64,000 nt of DNA, from positions 79,890 through 143,889 of the forward strand of contig JBAZGN010000004.1 in assembly GCA_041652815.1 (NCBI GenBank), written 5' to 3'. Position numbers and translations under genes: made by a program. The notes under the pieces are model-generated. The model saw nothing but the letters and a program-made list of their open reading frames with translations, had not been told where the DNA came from and did not search any database. Positions 8,293-40,107 of this stretch are shown one piece after another. Position 1 is the stretch's first letter, and each line of letters opens with the position of its first letter. The DNA comes from Candidatus Omnitrophota bacterium (lineage in GTDB: Bacteria; Omnitrophota; Gorgyraeia; Duberdicusellales; 4484-171).

Positions 8293-8545
8293 TTGTATAA
8301 TACACAGATTAGCGCAGATTTGAATGGATGAGCACAGATTTTTAAATCACAATATACAAACCACAAATCACAAACAATATACAATAAACAATTCCGAAAT
8401 CACAAAGGGATTTAAAATTTTGGTCATTGTGATTTTGGAATTGTGATTTGTTTGTAATTTGTAAATTGTGGTTTGTAATTTTCAATAACATCTGCGATCA
8501 TCTGTGATTTCCAATCTGTGATCATCTGTGTAATAATATATAAAA
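8293..8545. repeat. Nested word-palindrome (outer CACAGAT/ATCTGTG words, inner AATCACAA/TTGTGATT words)
   Basis: About 250-bp intergenic region: left half has 3x (c)acagat and 5x aatcacaa-like words, right half has their reverse complements; centre gggatttaaaatttt. Confidence 0.65.
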
Positions 8546-19298: not shown

Positions 19299-19382
19299 GT
19301 TGTTACAATCTACAGCACAGATATTTGCTCATTGTTAGAAAATATATTCGCGGGGTGGAGCAGACAGGTAGCTCGCAAGGCT

Positions 19383-20044
19383 CGATGGATACAAAACTTA
19401 AAGCTGACATTGCGGAATCAGCCGTAATCACTGAACTTCTTAAAAGAGGTTTTAGGGTGTTACGGCCGTAGGCGATAGGCTTTCCTATGATTTGGGTGTA
19501 GATTTTCAAGGAGAGTTTATCCGTATCCAGGTAAAAAGCGCGTGGTTTAACACAAAGGACAAGTGTTATATCGTTGATGCTCGGCGAACTAAGACTAATC
19601 GCCGGCGTATGTTAAGAGCGCATTACCGCAAGAACGACTTTGATTTCGCAATTGTTTACATCGCTGATTCAAATGTGTTCTACGTTATGCCTATAGCCGC
19701 GTTCTCTGGTTATAAAAGCACCATACATTTGTTGAATCAAAAAAGCGGCAGCGTGGGCCAAAAACAGCGATTTACAGAGAGCGATGGGATTTGTTATCCA
19801 ATGGGTCCCTCAGTCGGTAACGATTGATGGAAAACTTGTCAAATTCGGTGAAACTCTCGATGTTAAGTCAGAGCAATACCGAGCCAAGCCTTGACATTGC
19901 GTCAAGGAAGGTGTAGAGACTAGGTGGCAGGGACCCAACGCTAATTTAAAGTGTAACATAATTAGTGCTGGGTTAAGGTATAGTCCAGACTACAAACTCT
20001 TAACAAGCAGTTGTTAGGGGGCAGTGAAAACTGTAGCAGTAAAG
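19383..20044 (+). ncRNA. Group I intron (IC3-like, Azoarcus/cyanobacterial tRNA-intron type) carrying an ORF
   Basis: Core elements tcaaattcggtgaaact (P3/P4), gagccaagcc, gtgtagagactag (P7 5'), aaggtatagtccaga (P7 3'); omega G before the 3' exon. Confidence 0.8.
19385..19827 (+). pseudogene. Intron-encoded PD-(D/E)XK (Hjc/YraN-like, I-Ssp6803I-type) homing endonuclease, -1 frameshifted
   Basis: Frame 1 MDTKLKADIAESAVITELLKRGFRVLRP* stops at 19469-71; it continues in ORF 19492..19827 frame (GDRLSYDLGVDFQGEFIRIQVKSAW...), giving an E...D...(I/V)xVK nuclease motif. Confidence 0.55.
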
Positions 20045-20224
20045 CATAACCTTGAGGTCACAGGTTCAAATCCTGTCCCCGCAATGTCTTCTTTTTTACA
20101 TCATTTTCAAGCCAACGACACCATTCTTTTAACAATAGTAATATTTGGATGTAATAGTGCCTTCGGCACACTCCGCCTTCGGCGGAGATTACATACAAAT
20201 CCTGTCCCCGCAATGTCTTAAATT

Positions 20225-28991: not shown

Positions 28992-29223
28992 CGATACGAT
29001 ATATAAAATTTCTGATGAATCTACGAAAATAAGCCTGGAGAATTTCCTTCCTGTGCGTTGATTAACCTTTTTTATAGTAGATTTTTTTATCCTTGAATGA
29101 TATAATTTTGAAACACAGATGATTGCAGATGGCAGACACAGATGATCACAGATGTTTGAAAGGTAGAAAATAGAAGGATAAACAATAAATTTCTATTAAT
29201 TTCCTAATTTCTGCCAATTTCTA

Positions 29224-29275
29224 TTGTCCGCCACCGATGACTTTTTATATGTGGGCGGATCCGCCTCTGGCGGAA
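29224..29275. repeat. ~50-nt MITE-like hairpin element (CCGCCAC..GTGGGCGGATCCGCCTCTGGCGGAA)
   Basis: Near-identical copy at 34903-34953 and a diverged copy at 35107-35150; internal palindrome ggcggatccgcc. Confidence 0.65.
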
Positions 29276-29389
29276 AATTGATAGAAATTTGCTTCGCGAA
29301 ATTTATAGAAGTTAGTTGTTTGCTAAAAACTCTTTATTCTTAATATCTGCGATCATCCGCTTCAAAATCTGTGCTAATCTGTGTATATC

Positions 29390-29462: not shown

Positions 29463-29519
29463 TGTCTTCTTACGCAGATGATCACAGATGAAAGATACAG
29501 ATAATCACAGATATTCTTT

Positions 29520-29954
29520 GTGTTCTATATGAAAAAGTATGAGATTCTCGAACACACCGCAGATATACGAGCCAGAATTTTCTCGAAAACGCAGGAAGAT
29601 TTGTTTGTTAATTCAGCTATTTGTCTTTTTGAACTTTTAACCGATAAAAAGCTTAAAGCCGACAAGATAAAAAGTGTTGAGCTGGAAGCATCTAAATTAG
29701 AGGATTTGCTTATTCTTTGGCTCAATGAATTGATTTCCATTTTTTATGCCGATAAATTTTTTCCGGTTGAATATAAAATATCCATCAAAGAATTTTCCGG
29801 CACGAAAAAGCTTTTTGCTGAGATAAAAGGGCAAGATTTTAATCCCTACGACAGTAAAAGCATAAAGTCAGAAATTAAAGCTGCTACCTACCACAACCTA
29901 AAAATAGAAGAAGATAGAAACGGTTTCATAGCGGAAATTATATTTGACGTGTAA
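29520..29954 (+). CDS. Archease
   Basis: YEILEHTADIRARIFSKT is the archease N-terminal signature; about 140 aa. Confidence 0.8.
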   Translation: MFYMKKYEILEHTADIRARIFSKTQEDLFVNSAICLFELLTDKKLKADKIKSVELEASKLEDLLILWLNELISIFYADKFFPVEYKISIKEFSGTKKLFAEIKGQDFNPYDSKSIKSEIKAATYHNLKIEEDRNGFIAEIIFDV

Positions 29955-29963
29955 GCGAAGGGG

Positions 29964-31370
29964 GTGCGTATGAAGAATCTGGTGATTTTTGTTTTTGGTT
30001 TTCTTTTTTGTTTTTCTGTGTGCGCGCAGGAGAATGTAGAACTTACGGTTTACAACCAGAATTTTGCTTTAGTAAAGGACCAACGCAGCCTAGATTTAAA
30101 AAAAGGATTGAATAAAGTAGACTTCAAAGACGTAGCCTCCCTTATTGAGCCGACTTCGGTTCATTTTGTTTCTTTAACCGCCCCTGATTCGTGTTCTATT
30201 CTGGAACAGAATTACGAATATGATTTGATGAGTTCCGAAAAGCTTCTTTCCAAATATATCGATAAAAACATAAAAATCATAACTAAAGATGCAAAGACAT
30301 ACGAAGGAGTACTTTCGAGCTTTGATGCTAACAATATTATAATTTCCGGTCAGGATGGTTTAAGCATGATTGTCCGGCCTGATAATATAGCTCAGATAAG
30401 TTTCGATAAAACTCCGGAAGGGCTTATTACAAAGCCAACGCTTGTCTGGGAAATTGAAAATGGCAAAGAAGGAAAACACTTAACTGAAGTATCGTATCTT
30501 ACCGGCGGCGTAAACTGGCTCGCCGAATATGTAACCGTTTTGGATAGGGATGATAAAAAAGTGAGCCTCGATGGTTGGGTAAGTATAACTAACAATAGCG
30601 GCGTAGGTTATAAAAATGCAAAACTAAAACTCATTGCCGGAGATGTAAAACGAGTGCAGCCACAAGCAGGCGCAGTTATTTACAATAAAATGGCTCTCAG
30701 GGAAAAGGACGAGGCTATGCCGCAATTTCAGGAAAAAGCATTTTTTGAGTATCATATGTATACTTTGCAAAGAAAGGCAACCCTCAAGAATAATCAGATA
30801 AAGCAAATCTCTCTGCTTTCCGCAAACAACATACCCGTAAAAAAGGTTTTTATATATGACCCGGTAGATTATTACGGTTGGAATTGGTATCGCTATGATA
30901 ATAACCAAACTACAAAAGAACAAAAAATAAAAGTGAAAATTGAGCTTACCAACAGTAAGCAAAATAATTTGGGAATGCCTTTACCGAAAGGAAAAGTAAA
31001 AGTTTATAAAAAAGACGATGATGGCAGTTTACAATTTATAGGGGAAGATCAGATTGACCATACCCCTAAAGATGAAACTATAAAATTATATTTGGGGGAT
31101 GCTTTTGATGTGGTTGGAGAGCGAAAGAAAATGAACTACCGGACTGGTAATGATTGGGCAGAGGAAAGCTTTGAAATAACTTTACGTAACCATAAAGAGA
31201 GCGATATTGAAGTTAATGTTATTGAACATATGTGGCGTTATTCAAACTGGAAAATAATCAACAAATCTCACGAGTTTACCAAGAAAGACGCTCAAACCAT
31301 AGAGTTTAAGGTTCCTGTGGTAAAAGATGGAGAGGCAAAAGTAACTTATACGGTCAGGTATTGGTGGTAG
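29964..31370 (+). CDS. Secreted DUF4139-like protein
   Basis: 468 aa; signal peptide; general resemblance to the DUF4139/MuiA family; sits between archease and rtcB. Confidence 0.4.
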   Translation: MRMKNLVIFVFGFLFCFSVCAQENVELTVYNQNFALVKDQRSLDLKKGLNKVDFKDVASLIEPTSVHFVSLTAPDSCSILEQNYEYDLMSSEKLLSKYIDKNIKIITKDAKTYEGVLSSFDANNIIISGQDGLSMIVRPDNIAQISFDKTPEGLITKPTLVWEIENGKEGKHLTEVSYLTGGVNWLAEYVTVLDRDDKKVSLDGWVSITNNSGVGYKNAKLKLIAGDVKRVQPQAGAVIYNKMALREKDEAMPQFQEKAFFEYHMYTLQRKATLKNNQIKQISLLSANNIPVKKVFIYDPVDYYGWNWYRYDNNQTTKEQKIKVKIELTNSKQNNLGMPLPKGKVKVYKKDDDGSLQFIGEDQIDHTPKDETIKLYLGDAFDVVGERKKMNYRTGNDWAEESFEITLRNHKESDIEVNVIEHMWRYSNWKIINKSHEFTKKDAQTIEFKVPVVKDGEAKVTYTVRYWW

Positions 31371-31422
31371 ATACAGAGAACAGATAACAGAGTACAGAGA
31401 ACAGAAGGATAAATGAACTAAA

Positions 31423-32874
31423 ATGGAGAAAGTCGAATTTGAAAAAATTGACGATTATAGGTTTAGGATTCCTAAGAGCTATAAGCCGGGAATGCGCGTG
31501 GACGGTATTATTTATGCAAGTGAGAAGCTTCTTTCCGGAGTAAAAAACGATAATGCTTTTGAGCAGGTTGCAAATGTAGCATTTTTGCCGGGAATTGTTA
31601 AACATTCCTTGGCGATGCCGGACATCCATTGGGGTTATGGTTTTCCTATCGGCGGAGTTGCAGCTACAGACCCGGAAAATGACGGAGTAATCTCACCCGG
31701 AGGCGTGGGTTATGATATAAATTGCGGTGTGCGCTTACTTCGGACTAATTTAACCCTTGAAGATGTGCAGGGGAAAATTTCTAACATCGTAAATAAACTA
31801 TATCAAGATGTTCCTTCGGGTGTAGGCTCAACCGGTGAGATTAGCGTATCGGGAAAAGAGGAAAGAAGAGTCCTTCTTGAGGGGGCAAAATGGGCGGTAT
31901 CGCGCGGTTTTGGAGTAAAAGATGATTTGGAATCTTGTGAAGAGTTCGGAGCTATTGAAGGCGCTGACCCTGACAGCGTTTCCGAGCGCGCATATAAGAG
32001 GGGCAAAGAACAGACTGGGACTCTCGGAAGCGGAAACCATTTCCTTGAAGCCCAGGTTATCAGTGATATCTTTGATGCAAAAACCGCCGAGAAATTAGGT
32101 TTAAACATAGGCCAGATTACAGTTATGATTCATTCAGGCTCAAGAGGTTTAGGCTACCAGGTATGCGACGATTATGTAAGGCAAATGATTAGCTGTCTTA
32201 GCAAATACGCAATAAACGTGCCGGACAGGCAGCTTGCCTGTGCGCCAGTAAACAGCCCTGAAGCAAAGGAATATATCGGTGCAATGCGTGCGGCAGCAAA
32301 TTATGCCTGGGCAAACCGGCAAGTTTTAATGCACCTTACACGCTTGGCTTTTGAGAAGGTTTTTTCCAAAAGCTGGCAGTCTTTGGGTATGGATTTAATT
32401 TATGATGTTGCGCATAATATAGCAAAATTTGAAAAACATATTGTTGACGGTAAAGAAAAACTTTTGTGCGTGCATCGAAAAGGTGCAACGCGTTCCTTTG
32501 GCCCGGGCCACCCTGAACTTCCAGAAAAGTATAAGGAAACAGGCCAGCCGGTGATTATACCGGGAGATATGGGAAGGGCATCATATCTACTGGTTGGTAC
32601 TAAAAAAAGCGAAGAAGAAACTTTCGCAAGTACTTGTCACGGAGCCGGCAGAGTTTCTTCGCGCCACGAAGCATTAAAGAGAATAGATGTAAATGTTCTT
32701 TTAAAAGAACTTAAGGCTAAAGGCATAGAAGTAAGGGCAACCGGAAAAAAAACTATTGTCGAAGAAGCTCCTTCAGTGTATAAGAATATAGATGATGTTA
32801 TAGAGGTCGTACAGGAAAGTGGTATTTCCCGTAAGGTTTGCAGAATGCGGCCGTTAGCGGTTGTTAAGGGATGA
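31423..32874 (+). CDS. rtcB: RNA-splicing ligase RtcB
   Basis: 483 aa; GYDINCGVR, HSGSRGLG, TCHGAGR metal/GTP-binding motifs. Confidence 0.9.
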   Translation: MEKVEFEKIDDYRFRIPKSYKPGMRVDGIIYASEKLLSGVKNDNAFEQVANVAFLPGIVKHSLAMPDIHWGYGFPIGGVAATDPENDGVISPGGVGYDINCGVRLLRTNLTLEDVQGKISNIVNKLYQDVPSGVGSTGEISVSGKEERRVLLEGAKWAVSRGFGVKDDLESCEEFGAIEGADPDSVSERAYKRGKEQTGTLGSGNHFLEAQVISDIFDAKTAEKLGLNIGQITVMIHSGSRGLGYQVCDDYVRQMISCLSKYAINVPDRQLACAPVNSPEAKEYIGAMRAAANYAWANRQVLMHLTRLAFEKVFSKSWQSLGMDLIYDVAHNIAKFEKHIVDGKEKLLCVHRKGATRSFGPGHPELPEKYKETGQPVIIPGDMGRASYLLVGTKKSEEETFASTCHGAGRVSSRHEALKRIDVNVLLKELKAKGIEVRATGKKTIVEEAPSVYKNIDDVIEVVQESGISRKVCRMRPLAVVKG

Positions 32875-34216: not shown

Positions 34217-34804
34217 ATGGATGAAAAAGTTACAAAACAAAATTCTTTCTTTACTTTAATTAAATTTTTTCTTTTTTTAATTATATTTTGTTTCGTAATT
34301 TCTATAAGCAAAGAATTTTTTAAAGAAATAAGAGCGCAGGAAGCGCTTAATATAAATATTCTTTTTTTCTCGGCACTTTCTGCTTTTTCGTTTTACACTT
34401 TCCTTGTCGATTTAAATGGGATTTATAAAAAGATACAGAATTTTTTCTTCCATTCATCGTTTCTCTCATATCTTGTGCCTTCGTTTCTTGTTCTTTTAAG
34501 CCTTGGTTATTTTATACTTCCAAAAGCATTTAACCTGGAAATCGATAAAGGAATTTTTGTTTTCCTTGGCGGTTTTGTTTTTACATCGCACCTTATTTTT
34601 ATTGCGCGGGAAAACAAAGGCAAGAATTTTGCCAGTGTTATAAATTATTTGTTTAATTTCAGCATTCTATATATAATAAACCTTTTGTTATTGGGAGTGT
34701 ATTTAATGGCAGCGTTTGAAATAAATCTGGGGAAGGTCTTAGTTGAGGGTTTAACCGGCGGCGCCTTATTGATTAAAAACTTGTTTACGCAGATTTTGCA
34801 TTGA
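34217..34804 (+). CDS. Membrane protein
   Basis: 195 aa; 5 TM helices. Confidence 0.45.
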   Translation: MDEKVTKQNSFFTLIKFFLFLIIFCFVISISKEFFKEIRAQEALNINILFFSALSAFSFYTFLVDLNGIYKKIQNFFFHSSFLSYLVPSFLVLLSLGYFILPKAFNLEIDKGIFVFLGGFVFTSHLIFIARENKGKNFASVINYLFNFSILYIINLLLLGVYLMAAFEINLGKVLVEGLTGGALLIKNLFTQILH

Positions 34805-34881
34805 TAGAATAGTTATTTTAAAGATTTCTCGTCTCACTTTCGGTGAGACTCGAAATCCAAAAAATTACTTCGTAATTTTTT

Positions 34882-35150
34882 GGAGAGGTGGCCGAGTGGT
34901 TTTCCGCCACTGATGACTTTTTATATGTGGGCGGATCCGCCTCTGGCGGAAAGGCGCCGGTTTGTTCAATGAAACTTAGCCTTTTTGTGTGTAACCACAA
35001 AAAGGCTTTAGTTGAATTAATCCGACCAACGAAGTGGTGGCGGACTAAACCGGTGTACGATCGTAAGGTTGTACCTGGGGTTCCCCGCCACCTTAATAAA
35101 AAATATATAGGCGGGCGGGTCCGCCTGCGGCGGAAAATCCCCACCTTAAT
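34882..35150 (+). pseudogene. Degenerate tRNA-Ser-like copy disrupted by three insertions
   Basis: ggagaggtggccgagtggtt | insert | aaggcgccggtttg | insert | accggtgtacgatcgtaaggttgtacctggggttc | insert | tccccacc; the 3' acceptor does not pair. Confidence 0.6.
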
Positions 35151-35169
35151 TTATACATAAACAGCGCTT

Positions 35170-35445
35170 TTGCTAAGTAATATGCCGTGGATATATGTGT
35201 TGCGAAGTAGTAAAGATAATAAGCTTTACATCGGCAGTACGAGAGATTTAAAAAATCGTATAAAATTGCACAATGCGGGAAAAGTAAAATCGACAAAATC
35301 AAGAAAGCCATTTGAATTGTTACATAGTGAAGAATATGAGACAATAATAGAAGTACGCAAAGGAGAAAATTTTTTGAAAACTGGCCATGGTAGAGAATGG
35401 CTAAAGAATGAAATAGTAGCTTGGAAGGGTGGCCGAGTGGTTTAA
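35170..35445 (+). CDS. GIY-YIG domain nuclease (UPF0213/YhbQ-like, 91 aa)
   Basis: WIYVLRSSKDNKLYIGSTRDLKNRIKLHN is a GIY-YIG motif; the 3' end overlaps tRNA-Ser. Confidence 0.7.
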   Translation: MLSNMPWIYVLRSSKDNKLYIGSTRDLKNRIKLHNAGKVKSTKSRKPFELLHSEEYETIIEVRKGENFLKTGHGREWLKNEIVAWKGGRVV

Positions 35446-35513
35446 GGCGCCGGTTTGCTAAACCGGTGTACGATCGTAAGGTTGTACCTGGGGTTCAAAT
35501 CCCCACCCTTCCG
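35423..35513 (+). tRNA. tRNA-Ser(GCU)
   Basis: Type II tRNA: ggaaggg acceptor, loop ttGCTaa, long variable arm tgtacgatcgtaaggttgtac, T-arm tggggttcaaatcccca. Confidence 0.85.
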
Positions 35514-35546
35514 TGATTGATTAATAAATTAAATAATTAACGAATT

Positions 35547-37259
35547 ATGGACTACATCGCATTTGCTTTAAAGTATCGCCCGCAGAATTTTGATGAAGTT
35601 ATAGGCCAGGAAAATGTTGTAACTTCTATCAAAAACGCTATTCTTAAAAAGCATATTCATCACGCCTATCTTTTTAGTGGGCCGCGCGGGACCGGCAAAA
35701 CTTCCCTTGCGCGAATTTTTGCAAAGGCACTTAATTGCGAAAGTGAAAATTCGCCGGTGGTATCGCCTTGCGGTAAATGCATCAGCTGTGTTGAAATTAC
35801 CAAAGGTTCTTCTTTGGATATTATCGAGGTTGATGGCGCTTCAAACAGGGGTATTGATGAAATACGCACGCTTCGCGAGAATGTTAAATTGTCCCCTGCG
35901 CATTCGCGCTACAAAGTATATATCATTGATGAAGTGCATATGCTTACCCAAGAAGCTTTTAACGCTCTCCTAAAAACACTTGAAGAGCCGCCTACCCACG
36001 TTAAATTTATTTTCGCAACTACTCATCCGCATAAAGTAATACCTACGATTTTATCAAGATGCCAGAAATTTCAATTTAAGCTTGTTGCGCTGGAGAAAAT
36101 TGTAAATAAACTGAAAAGTATTACAAAAATTGAAGGAGTAAAAATAAACGATAATCTTCTATATGCTATAGCAAGAGCTTCCGGCGGAAGTATCAGAGAC
36201 GCTGAGTCATTGCTTGATCAGCTTGTTCCTGTAGTGCTTGAAAAAGGTTCTATGGAGGATGTTTTTTCATTTTTGGGAATAATTGACGAGGACAGCTTGA
36301 GTAAAATGGCAGGTTTTATCGTAAACAAGGATTTACAGTCTTCGTTGGATTTTGTAGATAGAGTAGTTCAGGACGGCAAAGACTTAAGTATATTCGTAAA
36401 CGCGCTTATCGAGTATCTAAGAAATTTTCTCTTAGCCAAGGTAAGCCTAAAAACTTTCAATAGCCTGGAGGATATATCTACAGAGTCCAAGGCGTCGATT
36501 CTTAAGGCGTGCAGTTCAATTACCCTTTCGCAAATTTTAAAAATAATCGATTTGCTGATAGAAGCAAAAGAACTTTCCCACAGGCTAAATACGGTAAGGA
36601 TACCGCTTGAGCTTGCGCTTGTAAAATTCATTTTGCCGCAGGAATCCGATTATAAGAAGTCTGAAGAAAAAATCATGAATATGCCTGTTGATAAAAAAAG
36701 CCTGCCTGATAAAAAAGTAAACGCTGAAACTAAACTTTCGGATTCAAATATCAAGCTGGAAGGGGATTTTGATATAGACGATGAAGAGGGTAGCGTTAAA
36801 AAAGTGTCTTTATCACAAGAGTCACAAACTGAAACAAAAATTGATAATGATGGCCTTTTGCTTTCCGAAATTAAGGCAAGATGGGCGGAGATAATCGTAA
36901 ATATACAGAAGGTCCGTGCGGCTATAAGTTCGCATCTTTCGTTTGCCGAGCCCCTTTCTTCAAGTTCAAATATCGTAAAAATAGGATTTTCCAACAAAGA
37001 TTATTTTCACAAAGAAATAGTTGAGGAACCCAAGAACGTAAAATTTATCGAGGACGTTGTTTCTAAAATATTGAATAAAAAAATCGGTATAAAATTTATC
37101 CTTTCGGATAGGATTACGTCAAAAACTGTTAATATTGCGCAACATAAAGCAAGTTCTGCCCAAACGCAGGCGGAGGGTAATCCTTCCGGGCAGCAAAATG
37201 AATTTATAAACGAACTGATGGATACTTTTGGCGGCCAGTTTCATACGGACGATGAGTAA
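35547..37259 (+). CDS. dnaX: DNA polymerase III subunit gamma/tau
   Basis: 570 aa; GPRGTGKTS Walker A, SRC motif, Zn module CGKCISC. Confidence 0.9.
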   Translation: MDYIAFALKYRPQNFDEVIGQENVVTSIKNAILKKHIHHAYLFSGPRGTGKTSLARIFAKALNCESENSPVVSPCGKCISCVEITKGSSLDIIEVDGASNRGIDEIRTLRENVKLSPAHSRYKVYIIDEVHMLTQEAFNALLKTLEEPPTHVKFIFATTHPHKVIPTILSRCQKFQFKLVALEKIVNKLKSITKIEGVKINDNLLYAIARASGGSIRDAESLLDQLVPVVLEKGSMEDVFSFLGIIDEDSLSKMAGFIVNKDLQSSLDFVDRVVQDGKDLSIFVNALIEYLRNFLLAKVSLKTFNSLEDISTESKASILKACSSITLSQILKIIDLLIEAKELSHRLNTVRIPLELALVKFILPQESDYKKSEEKIMNMPVDKKSLPDKKVNAETKLSDSNIKLEGDFDIDDEEGSVKKVSLSQESQTETKIDNDGLLLSEIKARWAEIIVNIQKVRAAISSHLSFAEPLSSSSNIVKIGFSNKDYFHKEIVEEPKNVKFIEDVVSKILNKKIGIKFILSDRITSKTVNIAQHKASSAQTQAEGNPSGQQNEFINELMDTFGGQFHTDDE

Positions 37260-38009: not shown

Positions 38010-38180
38010 TTGTTCTTTTACAAATTTATTCCCCGGTAGCCAAATTCGCCTTTTTCCACAATTTTGATAAAGGCGAATTTGTCCCGACGAACTCGGGGTA
38101 AATTTATGAAAGAAATTTACCCCGTATCTAGGTGAGTCGGGATAATAACATTGTTCTTTTACAAATTTATTCCCCGGTAG
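38010..38180 (+). repeat. 31-nt direct repeat (ttgttcttttacaaatttattccccggtagc), second copy includes the tRNA 5' end
   Basis: Copies at 38010-38040 and 38148-38178; hairpins between them. Confidence 0.6.
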
Positions 38181-38493
38181 CTCAATTGGTAGAGCGGCTG
38201 GCTGTGCGAGGCCGAAGGCCGAGCATCTCGAGGCGATAGCCGAGAGATCTTGAACTCAAGGTGTTAGCAGCTCTTATGGGAAACCGTAAGATGAAAAAGC
38301 GAGTAAATTCAGGGAAACCCCGACGTTACGTTGGGGCAATCCTGAGCCAAGCCCTGTATGGGAAGGTGCAGAGACTAGACACTCGCTGCCTAAATCCGAT
38401 GTGGACATGGCAAAGGTATAGTCCGACTCTCACAGTAATGTGAGTCAGCGTGTAACCAGTAGGTCGTAGGTTCGAGCCCTACCCGGGGAGCCA
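38171..38493 (+). tRNA. tRNA (Thr-UGU if spliced after U33; alternatively Asn-GUU) interrupted by a 247-nt group I intron
   Basis: 5' exon tccccggtagctcaattggtagagcggctggct, 3' exon tgtaaccagtaggtcgtaggttcgagccctacccggggagcca; intron 38204..38450 carries gcagagactaga / ggtatagtccg P7 elements and aaattcagggaaacc, gagccaagcc. Confidence 0.8.
38204..38450 (+). ncRNA. ORF-less group I intron (IC3-like)
   Basis: Conserved P3/P4/P7 sequences as in the Azoarcus tRNA-Ile and cyanobacterial tRNA introns; omega G; P1 ggct/ggcc with U.G at the splice site. Confidence 0.8.
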
Positions 38494-40107
38494 ATTCATT
38501 CTCTTATCAAACTGAGAGATAGAGCTGCCAGAAGAGCCTTTTTTAAGTTCTTCTGGCGTCTTTATTTCTGGTAGGTCATAGAAGGTAATCCTAATCTTTG
38601 AGGGATTCTCGTGATAGATAATCTTTTTGATAAGAAGATGTAGCAGTTCGCCTTGTTTGGTAGACGGCAGCTTATCAAATGTTTCACTGAACAATCTTAG
38701 GGTCTGAACTATAATAGCAGGGTCAAGTATCTTCGATTTTTCTCTTTCAATCTCAAGATTAAGTTCTTGAAGTCTGTTTTCTAAAGCCTCTTTTACTTCT
38801 TCAAGCTTTTCCAATGCCTCTTCAACAAGAGAGAATTTCTTCCGTTCGATAGACGCTATTAAAGGCTGTGCCTTGTTATTATTTTTGGTCAGCTTACCAA
38901 TAATTTCGGCTTTTTCTTTTTGTAAACCGGGTAGCTTGTTCTTAGATGATTTCATAGCAGCACTGACAATAGAGTCTATGATATTTTTGTGATTCGCTAT
39001 AAATTTGATTCTATCTATAACCAGATGTTCTAATTCTCTGGCAGGAGTGCTTTTGATACAGCAGGCGTTTTTATCCGAATGACCTACTCGCGTACATTTG
39101 TAATATAGATACGGCCTTCCTTTCTTTAGAGAATAGTTGGGCGACATCTGTGATTTGCAATGGTCGCACCAAACCAAGCCTCTTAGTAAATGACCATATT
39201 TATTTTCACTTACTGAACCTTTTGTTTGAGCATTTGAGTTAATGATACGCTGCACTCTATCAAATAAATTCTTGCTGATAATGGTTTTCCAATTCGCTTG
39301 AAAATACTCTCGTTCTTCTTTATCCCCTTTTCTTGTTATAGCCACAGTTTTACCTATGTAAACAGGATTCTTGAGAATATTCAATATAATACCTTCGGTA
39401 AATTTATTTCCTCCCTTGACATCACCCGTCTTGGTTTTCCACGTTTTTGTGCGATAGCCAAGACCATTAAAATATGTAGCGATACGATTTGCAGATTGCA
39501 CTTCGGTATATTTTGCGAAAATACGCTTTGCTATTTTTGTTTCTTTTGGGTTTACTTTCAGTATGCCTTTTTCGCTTGGATGAAAATCGTACCCTAAGGG
39601 AGGATATCCGCCGTGGAATAGGCCTTTTTTTGCACGATACCTCATTCTGTCTCTGGTTCTTTCGCTGGCAAGACGTCTTTCGAACTCGGCGAAACTTAGG
39701 AGAACCTGTAAGATTAACTTACCAGTGGCGTCAGCAGTACTAAATGTTTGACTGGCACAACATATATTTATACCGTGTTCTTCCAATTTAGGCCATATTT
39801 GGAAGAATTGCACAAGGTCTCTACTAAAGCGGTCGATGCTTTTGACAATTATCATATCAAATTTGCCCTGCTCAGCATCCTGTAATAGTCGTTTTAAGGC
39901 AGGTCTATCCAAAGTTCCGCCAGAGTAATTTCTATCATCGTATCTTGTTGGAATGAGTTTCCAGTGAGGGCGGGTTTTAAAAAAACTTTCGCATATGTCT
40001 CTTTGGCTTTCTATTGTATCACTTGGCGAAATTTCTTCTGGATCTTGGTCAGATATCCTTGTATATACTACGCAGGTAAATTTCTTCTCAGCGTCTTTTG
40101 TGAACAT
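38479..40107 (-). CDS. Large serine recombinase (resolvase N-domain + recombinase + zinc ribbon + coiled coil)
   Basis: 542 aa; N-terminal YTRIS(D)QD catalytic Ser region, DRFSRD; C-terminal CxxC Zn ribbon and coiled coil; the 3' end overlaps the tRNA. Confidence 0.85.
   Translation of the reverse strand: MFTKDAEKKFTCVVYTRISDQDPEEISPSDTIESQRDICESFFKTRPHWKLIPTRYDDRNYSGGTLDRPALKRLLQDAEQGKFDMIIVKSIDRFSRDLVQFFQIWPKLEEHGINICCASQTFSTADATGKLILQVLLSFAEFERRLASERTRDRMRYRAKKGLFHGGYPPLGYDFHPSEKGILKVNPKETKIAKRIFAKYTEVQSANRIATYFNGLGYRTKTWKTKTGDVKGGNKFTEGIILNILKNPVYIGKTVAITRKGDKEEREYFQANWKTIISKNLFDRVQRIINSNAQTKGSVSENKYGHLLRGLVWCDHCKSQMSPNYSLKKGRPYLYYKCTRVGHSDKNACCIKSTPARELEHLVIDRIKFIANHKNIIDSIVSAAMKSSKNKLPGLQKEKAEIIGKLTKNNNKAQPLIASIERKKFSLVEEALEKLEEVKEALENRLQELNLEIEREKSKILDPAIIVQTLRLFSETFDKLPSTKQGELLHLLIKKIIYHENPSKIRITFYDLPEIKTPEELKKGSSGSSISQFDKRMNWLPG

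Follow-up and report, generated by a model that had tools for sequence, protein, structure and literature searches.

Free-standing homing genes of the phage T4 segB type place a GIY-YIG nuclease gene among tRNA genes, without an intron and with a patchy distribution (PMC2330249). The same traits mark a locus that we analyzed in Candidatus Omnitrophota, within a stretch of 64,000 nt that we refer to as the window (JBAZGN010000004.1, positions 79,890 to 143,889, forward strand). At this locus, an open reading frame (ORF) for a small GIY-YIG nuclease lies between an interrupted, partial copy of tRNA-Ser(GCU) and an intact gene for the same tRNA. Both kinds of gene are presumably inherited together with flanking DNA after break repair. 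However, SegB-type enzymes have at least 200 aa and a DNA-binding domain, whereas the protein described here is an 87-aa catalytic core of the Slx1/UPF0213 branch. Unlike segB, its gene is chromosomal in uncultured bacteria; a partial copy of a tRNA borders it on one side and a complete copy of the same tRNA on the other, and palindromic hairpins occupy the loops of the partial copy. The arrangement is probably a small selfish GIY-YIG cassette at tRNA-Ser(GCU) that regenerates its tRNA target.

Several other described systems share single features with the locus. The best sequence matches of the protein are UPF0213 proteins (YhbQ, BH0048, and EF2693; PDB 1zg2 and 1ywl), which have the same size and a single domain. 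A 2006 survey of the GIY-YIG superfamily regarded bacterial Slx1-like proteins as vertically inherited repair enzymes, made no mention of tRNA genes for them, and described Slx1 enzymes as cutting at single-strand/duplex junctions, on the 3' side of the junction (PMC1564403). In contrast to this published view of Slx1-like/UPF0213 proteins as DNA repair factors, the gene described here is tRNA-linked and accompanied by a duplication. Integrative elements such as phages and islands, with their attL and attR sites, likewise have a complete tRNA on one side and a partial tRNA repeat on the other, but here no integrase lies between the repeats, the unit measures only ~300 bp, the repeat is a 5' or 3' part of the tRNA of variable length, and the partial copy is interrupted by hairpins. 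Intron-containing tRNAs, whether bacterial with group I introns or archaeal with multiple introns, also carry inserts in their loops, including the anticodon loop; the copy described here differs in having no ribozyme signature, incomplete exons, no acceptor pairing, and an intact gene adjoining it.

The hairpins themselves resemble the repetitive extragenic palindromic (REP) sequences and bacterial interspersed mosaic elements (BIMEs) that occur with REP-associated tyrosine transposases (RAYTs), in that they are small palindromic multicopy elements (PMC3733652). They differ from these in their (TCCGCCnnnGGCGGA)x2 build, in showing no GTAG/CGTC tag (no genome-wide search for RAYT genes was made), in their spread over the candidate phyla radiation (CPR), Omnitrophota, and the Planctomycetes-Verrucomicrobia-Chlamydiae superphylum, in their preference for the loops of stem-loops, and in their coupling to a GIY-YIG gene instead of a Y1 transposase. 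The literature that we searched contained no description of the module or of the hairpin, and none that connects this enzyme family with tRNA genes, with duplication, or with mobility. Each component belongs to a known kind; their combination and the enzyme family appear to be undescribed in that literature.

Anatomy of the tRNA-Ser(GCU) locus

An earlier note on this DNA, made from the sequence alone, had reported a near-duplicate of tRNA-Ser interrupted in the D-, anticodon, and T-loops, a GIY-YIG ORF between this copy and an intact tRNA-Ser whose 5' end it overlaps, and an acceptor stem that does not pair. We confirmed each of these observations, and the anatomy of the locus is established (Table 1). 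Window positions 34882-35147 are a copy of tRNA-Ser(GCU) positions 1 to ~68, which aligns to the intact gene in four blocks separated by three palindromic inserts. The tRNA-derived blocks differ from the intact copy in the 5' acceptor strand only (GGAGAGG versus GGAAGGG); block 2 matches identically, and block 3 is an exact direct repeat, 39/39, of positions 35458-35496 (repeat family D20). The T-arm has its foot ~2 nt before the end of the partial copy (a value of +2 for end minus stem foot), and the 3' acceptor strand of this copy is missing. When all three inserts were removed in silico, the acceptor consisted of 3 Watson-Crick pairs, 2 G-T pairs, and 2 mismatches. The upstream stretch was also scanned for tRNAs, a check that the earlier note had proposed, and neither ARAGORN nor Rfam called one there; the sole tRNA called in the region by either program was the downstream tRNA-Ser(GCU).

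All three inserts fold into two adjacent hairpins each, with z-scores of -2.8 to -4.9. The D-loop insert (z = -4.9) is a long-loop variant of a 30-nt element described below, and the anticodon-loop insert reached z = -4.8. No duplicated bases, that is, no target-site duplication, were present at the insertion points between GGTTT and AAGG, TTTG and CTAAA, and GTTC and AAAT, and no RNA family matched the inserts in a scan at the Rfam gathering threshold. Direct repeats of tRNA sequence flank the GIY-YIG gene, which overlaps the intact tRNA-Ser by 23 nt. Between the repeats, no other ORF matched a protein family, and there is no gene for a tyrosine or serine recombinase. A scan of positions 34600-35600 for promoters and terminators gave 3 promoter-like sites versus 2.5 expected. 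A segment of 2.6 kb of the locus is 100% identical in the Candidatus Omnitrophica metagenome-assembled genome (MAG) GCA_023227945.1 and in an ENA assembly contig; since the identical NCBI and ENA contigs may share reads, they are not an independent confirmation of the assembly.

Table 1. Positions of the tRNA-Ser(GCU) locus components and of a solitary hairpin copy in the window
Feature	Position	Strand	Description
Partial tRNA-Ser(GCU) copy, block 1	34882..34902	+	Acceptor 5' strand GGAGAGG, D-stem, D-loop to GGTTT
D-loop insert	34903..34950	+	48 nt after GGTTT; double hairpin TCCGCCAC..GTGGGCGGA + TCCGCCtctGGCGGA
Partial copy, block 2	34951..34964	+	D-stem 3' strand, anticodon stem 5' strand, to G34
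Anticodon-loop insert	34965..35044	+	80 nt between G34 and C35; long AT-rich hairpin + TCC..GGA hairpin
Partial copy, block 3	35045..35083	+	C35 to T-loop C56, including variable arm
T-loop insert	35084..35134	+	51 nt after GTTC; double hairpin CCCGCCACC..GGCGGGCGGG + TCCGCCtgcGGCGGA
Partial copy, block 4	35135..35147 (aligned 35135-35145)	+	Rest of T-loop, T-stem 3' strand
GIY-YIG nuclease ORF	35182..35445	+	87 aa; ATG 35182, alternative TTG 35170; stop inside intact tRNA
Intact tRNA-Ser(GCU)	35423..35513	+	ARAGORN; Rfam RF00005, 60.3 bits; acceptor GGAAGGG/CCCTTCC
Solitary D-loop-type double hairpin	29227..29274	+	In loop of host inverted repeat aatttctat/atagaaatt, 115 nt upstream of tRNA-Lys

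The product of the ORF matched Pfam PF01541 over residues 1-71 (E = 1.9e-16; 60.5 bits, cut-off 22.6). It has a single-domain build of 87 aa, with no auxiliary DNA-binding domain, and its homologues measure 81-119 aa. Residues Y5, Y16, R26, H30, and E62 are invariant in an alignment of six homologues, and from family knowledge we take them to be catalytic (the Tyr residues of the GIY and YIG motifs, then Arg, His/Tyr, and Glu). Among solved relatives in the PDB, UPF0213 proteins ranked closest (1zg2, 2.3e-13; 1ywl, 1.2e-11) and SLX1 next (6seh, 2.7e-4), ahead of UvrC and I-TevI (1.4e-3). The NCBIfam model for group I intron endonucleases reached 25 bits against a cut-off of 56, through the N-terminal motif only. 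Searches of PADLOC and PHROGs returned only weak matches (E about 1e-3), confined to the N-terminal GIY motif, and a defense or phage origin was rejected on account of these weak, motif-level signals. The nuclease is assigned to the minimal Slx1-like/UPF0213 family.

Recurrence of the layout and its patchy distribution

A nuclease-only search of metagenome contigs, with a three-sequence alignment as the query, returned 432 relatives, and the best 80 (42-59% identity) were analyzed. A tRNA gene on the same strand was located within 300 nt, and mostly within 50 nt, in 68 of these 80 loci, compared with the ~4% expected from the tRNA density of hairpin-selected genome loci. The linked tRNAs were those for Ser, Leu, Lys, Cys, Arg, Gly, Gln, Asn, Pro, Glu, and Phe. 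In 58 of the 68 tRNA-linked loci, an exact partial duplicate of the tRNA (at least 11 nt) was present across the ORF. The layout came in two polarities: 47 loci had a partial 5' copy followed by the GIY-YIG gene and the intact tRNA, and 21 had the intact tRNA followed by the GIY-YIG gene and a 5'-truncated copy (for example, L073). Partial copies usually started exactly at tRNA position 1 and had variable end points, which ranged from 12 to 68 in the upstream partial copies that were traced. Among nearest-homologue pairs in which both members had a nearby tRNA, 40 of 59 shared the same anticodon, compared with 8% expected. The recurrence of the layout and its tRNA linkage are therefore established, homologues elsewhere being tRNA-linked, and the GIY-YIG-associated tRNA duplication that the earlier note had suggested held up. 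Because the same three-part layout stands beside many different tRNA genes in uncultured bacteria, it looks like an undescribed kind of selfish DNA, one that restores the tRNA gene on invading it.

The same locus was then compared among relatives, for which orthologous loci were found via the adjacent membrane protein (the percentages below are identities of this protein). The order RtcB-SerS-membrane protein was conserved in relatives with and without the cassette. Three relatives at 90-92% (L201, L205/L206, and L207), two of which (L201 and L207) share their sample of origin with the window, have a single tRNA-Ser and neither a GIY-YIG gene nor a 5' partial copy. At 83%, L202 carries a decayed GIY-YIG gene with an internal stop downstream of tRNA-Ser (L202 3431-3760), bracketed by a perfect 15-nt inverted repeat, TTTTACTTCGCCCCT / AGGGGCGAAGTAAAA. 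L208/L209 (87%) and L204 (61%) have a partial copy of positions 1-41 with an anticodon-loop insert and no GIY-YIG gene, followed by the intact tRNA; these arrangements look like scars. The presence or absence of the cassette is thus polymorphic, the locus being empty, scarred, or differently invaded in close relatives versus filled in the window, and its patchy distribution is established.

The acceptor sequences and the inserts of these relatives could be compared directly with those of the window. The dead window copy keeps the GGAGAGG acceptor, which is the resident allele of L201, L202, L205, and L208, whereas the acceptor of the live copy, GGAAGGG/CCCTTCC, is unique and doubly compensated and stands in place of the GGAGAGG of the clade. 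The clade acceptor of the dead copy together with the unique acceptor of the live copy fits recombination of a resident with an incoming tRNA. The anticodon-loop inserts of L204 and L208 are homologous to that of the window and occupy the same G34/C35 site, with the conserved ends TTAATGA / GAATTAATCC and 10 compensated pairs, and the D-loop hairpin of L204 is the same variant at the same position as in the window.

Such conservation would suit a module that serves its host, either by maintaining or repairing tRNA genes, which are heavily transcribed, or by supplying a truncated transcript as a regulatory or decoy RNA, and that is vertically inherited. The fold of the anticodon-loop insert is kept in three loci with 10 compensated pairs, scars are kept in L204 and L208, and prokaryotic Slx1-like proteins are seen as vertically inherited repair factors (PMC1564403). 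However, relatives at 83-92% membrane protein identity are patchily empty, filled, or differently filled, the GIY-YIG ORF has decayed in L202, the targets comprise many different tRNAs and at least one non-tRNA sequence, and the interior of the conserved hairpin looks replaced, not mutated. We therefore give a host-serving module little probability.

The comparison with relatives also bears on the alternative that the earlier note had raised, an unusual multi-intron tRNA. On this reading, the inserts would be removed from the RNA and the product perhaps sealed by RtcB and archease, which are encoded 2-5 kb upstream. In keeping with this idea, the blocks match the functional tRNA with 100% identity if the acceptor stem is set aside, the inserts fall exactly within the three loops, archease and RtcB genes are close by (29520-32874), and group I introns are present in two other tRNAs of the genome. 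However, the 3' acceptor strand is missing, the inserts match no Rfam family, and hairpins never occur in a sole tRNA copy, an intact copy always being adjacent. Equivalent upstream copies end anywhere from position 12 to 68, and these variable end points show that the partial copies are not intron-containing tRNAs. Since the gene order around RtcB, SerS, and the membrane protein is the same regardless of the cassette, the nearby RtcB and archease genes are no evidence for splicing; we rejected splicing by this pair and treated its proximity as a coincidence. A functional multi-intron tRNA is accordingly extremely improbable, and the dead status of the interrupted copy is established.

Hairpin inserts, cassette junctions, and a proposed mechanism

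The earlier note had taken the D-loop and T-loop inserts to be copies of one element. The D-loop insert is 51/53 identical to the copy at 29224-29276. For the T-loop insert, ungapped identity is 60%, but the two-hairpin architecture is shared, and so is the 3' half with its hairpin TCCGCCnnnGGCGGA. Matches to the core pattern numbered 3 in the window versus 0.06 expected. In its generic form the element is a 30-nt double hairpin, (TCCGCCnnnGGCGGA)x2, of which the window copies are long-loop variants. A genome scan for GGCGGRTCCGCCNNNGGCGGAA, with one genome per species, returned at least 119 stretches, so the copies are not restricted to the three of the window. The carriers among the matches listed belong to the CPR/Patescibacteria, Omnitrophota, Kiritimatiellae, Lentisphaerae, Planctomycetes, and Elusimicrobia, and nearly all are uncultured. 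The hairpin family is thus a multicopy palindromic element with conserved ends, and the literature searched contained the string GGCGGATCCGCC in cloning primers only. Among the matches listed, five sites were tRNA-like (L048, L073, L094, L104, and L119); each of them was within a loop and had an intact copy of that tRNA next to it, and in 3 of these a GIY-YIG homologue lay between both tRNA copies. L104 holds a near-identical variant of the T-loop insert at the same site, between TTC and AAAT, in a dead tRNA-Met copy.

Of the 139 double-hairpin sites listed, 38 lay inside long ORFs (L002-L120; e.g., L049 4933-4954, L095, L020, and L096), where they mostly read SAxGGSAxGG and less often PPxADPPxAE or RRRRIRLxRK. 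In the valyl-tRNA synthetase of Saccharibacteria, the double hairpin adds a loop of ~8-10 residues that is absent from the Thermus enzyme (PDB 1gax). Palindromic elements of Rickettsia, which are mentioned in PMC1779305, insert in frame in genes and are translated. The 30-nt double hairpin keeps reading frames in the same way, yet it spans many uncultured phyla; the analysis exposes a cross-phylum palindromic element that adds 10-residue loops to proteins as well.

Within the partial tRNA copies, we counted 34 distinct inserts. All of them were GC-rich and palindromic, measured 16-95 nt, and represented several sequence families; the D-arm accounted for 14, the anticodon loop for 13, the T-arm for 3, and other positions for 4. 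The density of perfect GC-rich hairpins was 9.2 per kb over the 150 nt preceding the ORF versus 0.86 per kb elsewhere in the loci (~11-fold), and 55 of the 80 loci had at least one GC-rich hairpin upstream of the ORF. Asymmetric double hairpins had the same orientation relative to the tRNA and ORF in 25 of 30 cases (25:5). We rejected the possibility that the hairpins are inverted repeats flanking the GIY-YIG gene, because downstream copies are oriented like upstream ones. Nested inserts, with one hairpin within the loop of another, were found in L094, L153, and L204. In the loci examined, hairpins were found solely in redundant tRNA copies, with 0 in a sole tRNA, and excision in silico restored a tRNA for only 4 of 231 hairpins, all four beside an intact copy of the same tRNA.

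The position of the hairpins was related to the end of the partial copy. In 24 of 27 upstream partial copies that were traced, at least one hairpin was present and the copy ended 4-17 nt (median, 9) past the last one. When both polarities were mapped onto the structure given by ARAGORN, 27 of 37 partial-copy ends fell within -4 to +8 nt of the foot of the arm with the last hairpin, a range that by our estimate would be reached in roughly a quarter of cases if ends were placed uniformly. The hairpin-junction spacing is established. The hairpins occupy tRNA loops, and the partial copy stops where the last hairpin-bearing arm has its foot. The hairpins therefore do not reflect a random later invasion, and the pattern points to a mechanical coupling of the hairpins to the cassette junction. 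The comparisons thus support the main reading of the earlier note, a GIY-YIG-associated duplication of the tRNA target combined with invasion by a small hairpin element, with two refinements: this coupling, and the label of miniature inverted-repeat transposable element (MITE), which does not apply in its classical sense because the 30-nt double hairpin has no target-site duplication.

It is quite unlikely that these features met by coincidence, with a tandem tRNA-Ser duplicate that decayed, a GIY-YIG gene that landed between the copies, and abundant hairpins that later filled the dispensable copy, whose tRNA loops suit such repeats. The double hairpin is indeed an abundant, independent repeat across several phyla, in coding as well as intergenic DNA, and hairpin-bearing dead copies without a GIY-YIG gene exist (L104 and L119). 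However, such a coincidence is already disfavored by the recurrence of the layout, as 58 of 80 independent loci combine the GIY-YIG gene, the tRNA, and a partial duplicate of that tRNA, with many tRNAs and in both polarities, and the preference of copy ends for the foot of a hairpin arm, set against our own estimate for uniform placement, argues in the same direction.

A selfish cassette that regenerates its target, which we consider the likely explanation, could arise as follows. The cassette lies between two direct tRNA repeats, of which the displaced, dead 5' copy retains the acceptor allele of the resident gene and the complete 3' tRNA would keep the host viable. A putative structure-dependent cut would fall at the foot of a tRNA-gene arm lengthened by a palindromic insert; structure-specific cutting by the nuclease is something that we infer. 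A template that bears the cassette would then serve to repair the break, the two tRNA-derived repeats acting as homology arms, so that the cassette would be copied in and the intact tRNA regenerated. The same product would result if a unit with a tRNA fragment integrated by a single crossover (Campbell type), which would account for both polarities. By breaking up the homology of the repeats, the hairpins would slow loss of the cassette by recombination. How specifically the nuclease cleaves, by which route the break is repaired, and what part the hairpins may play are likewise inferred, and the regular hairpin-junction spacing predicts a cleavage site.

Several points weigh against this explanation. 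The 80 loci are the best matches to a Ser-tRNA-linked query, and the tRNA spectrum is therefore biased. Most of the sequences derive from MAGs or metagenome contigs, in which misassembly of repeats can occur. The tRNA shared by nearest homologues could reflect vertical inheritance and not target specificity. No duplicate was found in 10 of the 68 tRNA-linked loci, partial copies without a hairpin occur in L149, L163, and L174, and hairpin-bearing partial copies without a GIY-YIG gene occur in L104, L119, L204, and L208. The intact tRNA copy would still be a potential target for any tRNA-directed nuclease. Because the protein has no DNA-binding domain, site-specific homing like that of I-TevI or SegB is unlikely. 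Finally, nuclease relatives also interrupt a non-tRNA gene (L212 and L213), and since these homologues have no nearby tRNA, the nuclease family also invades non-tRNA targets.

At that site (ERZ25039459 contig_35342, 547984-551418), two GIY-YIG homologues lie in tandem, each interrupting an ORF. The N terminus of the host ORF resembles, in an assignment made by eye, a four-helix-bundle protein of the 23S rRNA intervening-sequence type.

A rival that partly overlaps with the selfish cassette holds that the hairpins are nonautonomous elements moved by the GIY-YIG nuclease, as RAYT moves REP. The nuclease would nick the single-stranded loops of extruded stem-loops, for which tRNA loops would be the best targets, and nuclease and hairpins would form one transposable system. 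The 11-fold enrichment of hairpins beside GIY-YIG genes, their coupling to the junction, and the 25:5 orientation bias relative to the tRNA and GIY-YIG direction are all consistent with such a system, as are insertion into loops without target-site duplication, including the loops of other hairpins (L094, L153, and L204), and the many solitary hairpins centered in host palindromes. The Slx1 family is known to cut single-strand/duplex junctions (PMC1564403, background text). In contrast, a GIY-YIG homologue was present in only 5 of the 119 hairpin-selected stretches listed (fetched up to 8 kb), strand transfer is no known activity of GIY-YIG nucleases, and the hairpin families are diverse whereas the nucleases are mutually similar. 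We regard this rival as possible but doubtful.

With comparable reserve, we tentatively raise the idea that double hairpins together with a minimal Slx1-like GIY-YIG gene represent a new class of structure-guided mobile DNA. Palindromic mini-elements would seek the single-stranded loops of stem-loops, namely, the arms of tRNA genes, other hairpins, and sites within coding DNA, where in-frame reading turns them into a short, flexible peptide rich in Gly and Ser. Once an arm has been lengthened, the nuclease would cut at its foot, and the nuclease gene would be copied in along with a fresh tRNA copy. In that event, a presumed housekeeping repair family would be a widespread selfish element of the CPR, Omnitrophota, and related uncultured phyla.

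With the selfish cassette, for its part, one or more branches of the uncharacterized bacterial Slx1-like/UPF0213 nucleases would gain a concrete biological role, namely, to spread selfishly at tRNA genes. Target duplication with regeneration would be a third route to the harmless insertion of a nuclease gene, besides introns and inteins. It would also explain many of the "tRNA pseudogene" fragments in MAGs and the "GIY-YIG family protein" annotations adjacent to tRNA genes.

Other features of the window and its relatives

The Rfam gathering scan found group I introns at 19783-19996 and 38242-38445 only. The first (RF00028, 63.7 bits) splits the anticodon loop of a tRNA-fMet(CAU) within positions 19350-20080 and encodes a PD-(D/E)XK endonuclease (ORF 19492-19827; PF11645, E = 4e-23). 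At 20157-20219, ~105 nt past the 3' end of this tRNA-fMet, is a double hairpin, GTGCCttcgGCAC + TCCGCCttcGGCGGA, and after it come 24 nt that duplicate the 3' end of tRNA-fMet; this arrangement looks like the scar of a module of the same kind in the opposite polarity. The spacer motif of the region, TAGTAATATTTGGATG, recurs downstream of tRNA-Ser in L205.

The second intron (RF00028, 82 bits) interrupts a tRNA within positions 38174-38500 whose CCA end is encoded. A large serine recombinase gene on the minus strand (38479-40107), with Resolvase, Recombinase, and Zn-ribbon domains, abuts the 3' end of this tRNA, which suggests an integrated element. In a related Omnitrophota MAG (JAQTOI010000004; L204 1-1063), the RtcB gene holds an intein (PF14890), giving a product of 995 aa.

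Two further repeat families were observed in the window. Arrays of a CACAGATGAT-like repeat lie on both sides of tRNA-Lys(CUU), at 29115-29160 and 29470-29515, and similar 30-nt copies are present at 8503 and 17716. Between 51364 and 62509, eight copies of a ~45-70-nt unit (TTGACTTTCTAACCCTCTGTGATAATATATTGCAGAGGGTTTTTT) stand ahead of successive genes, each consisting of a promoter-like hexamer followed by a hairpin.

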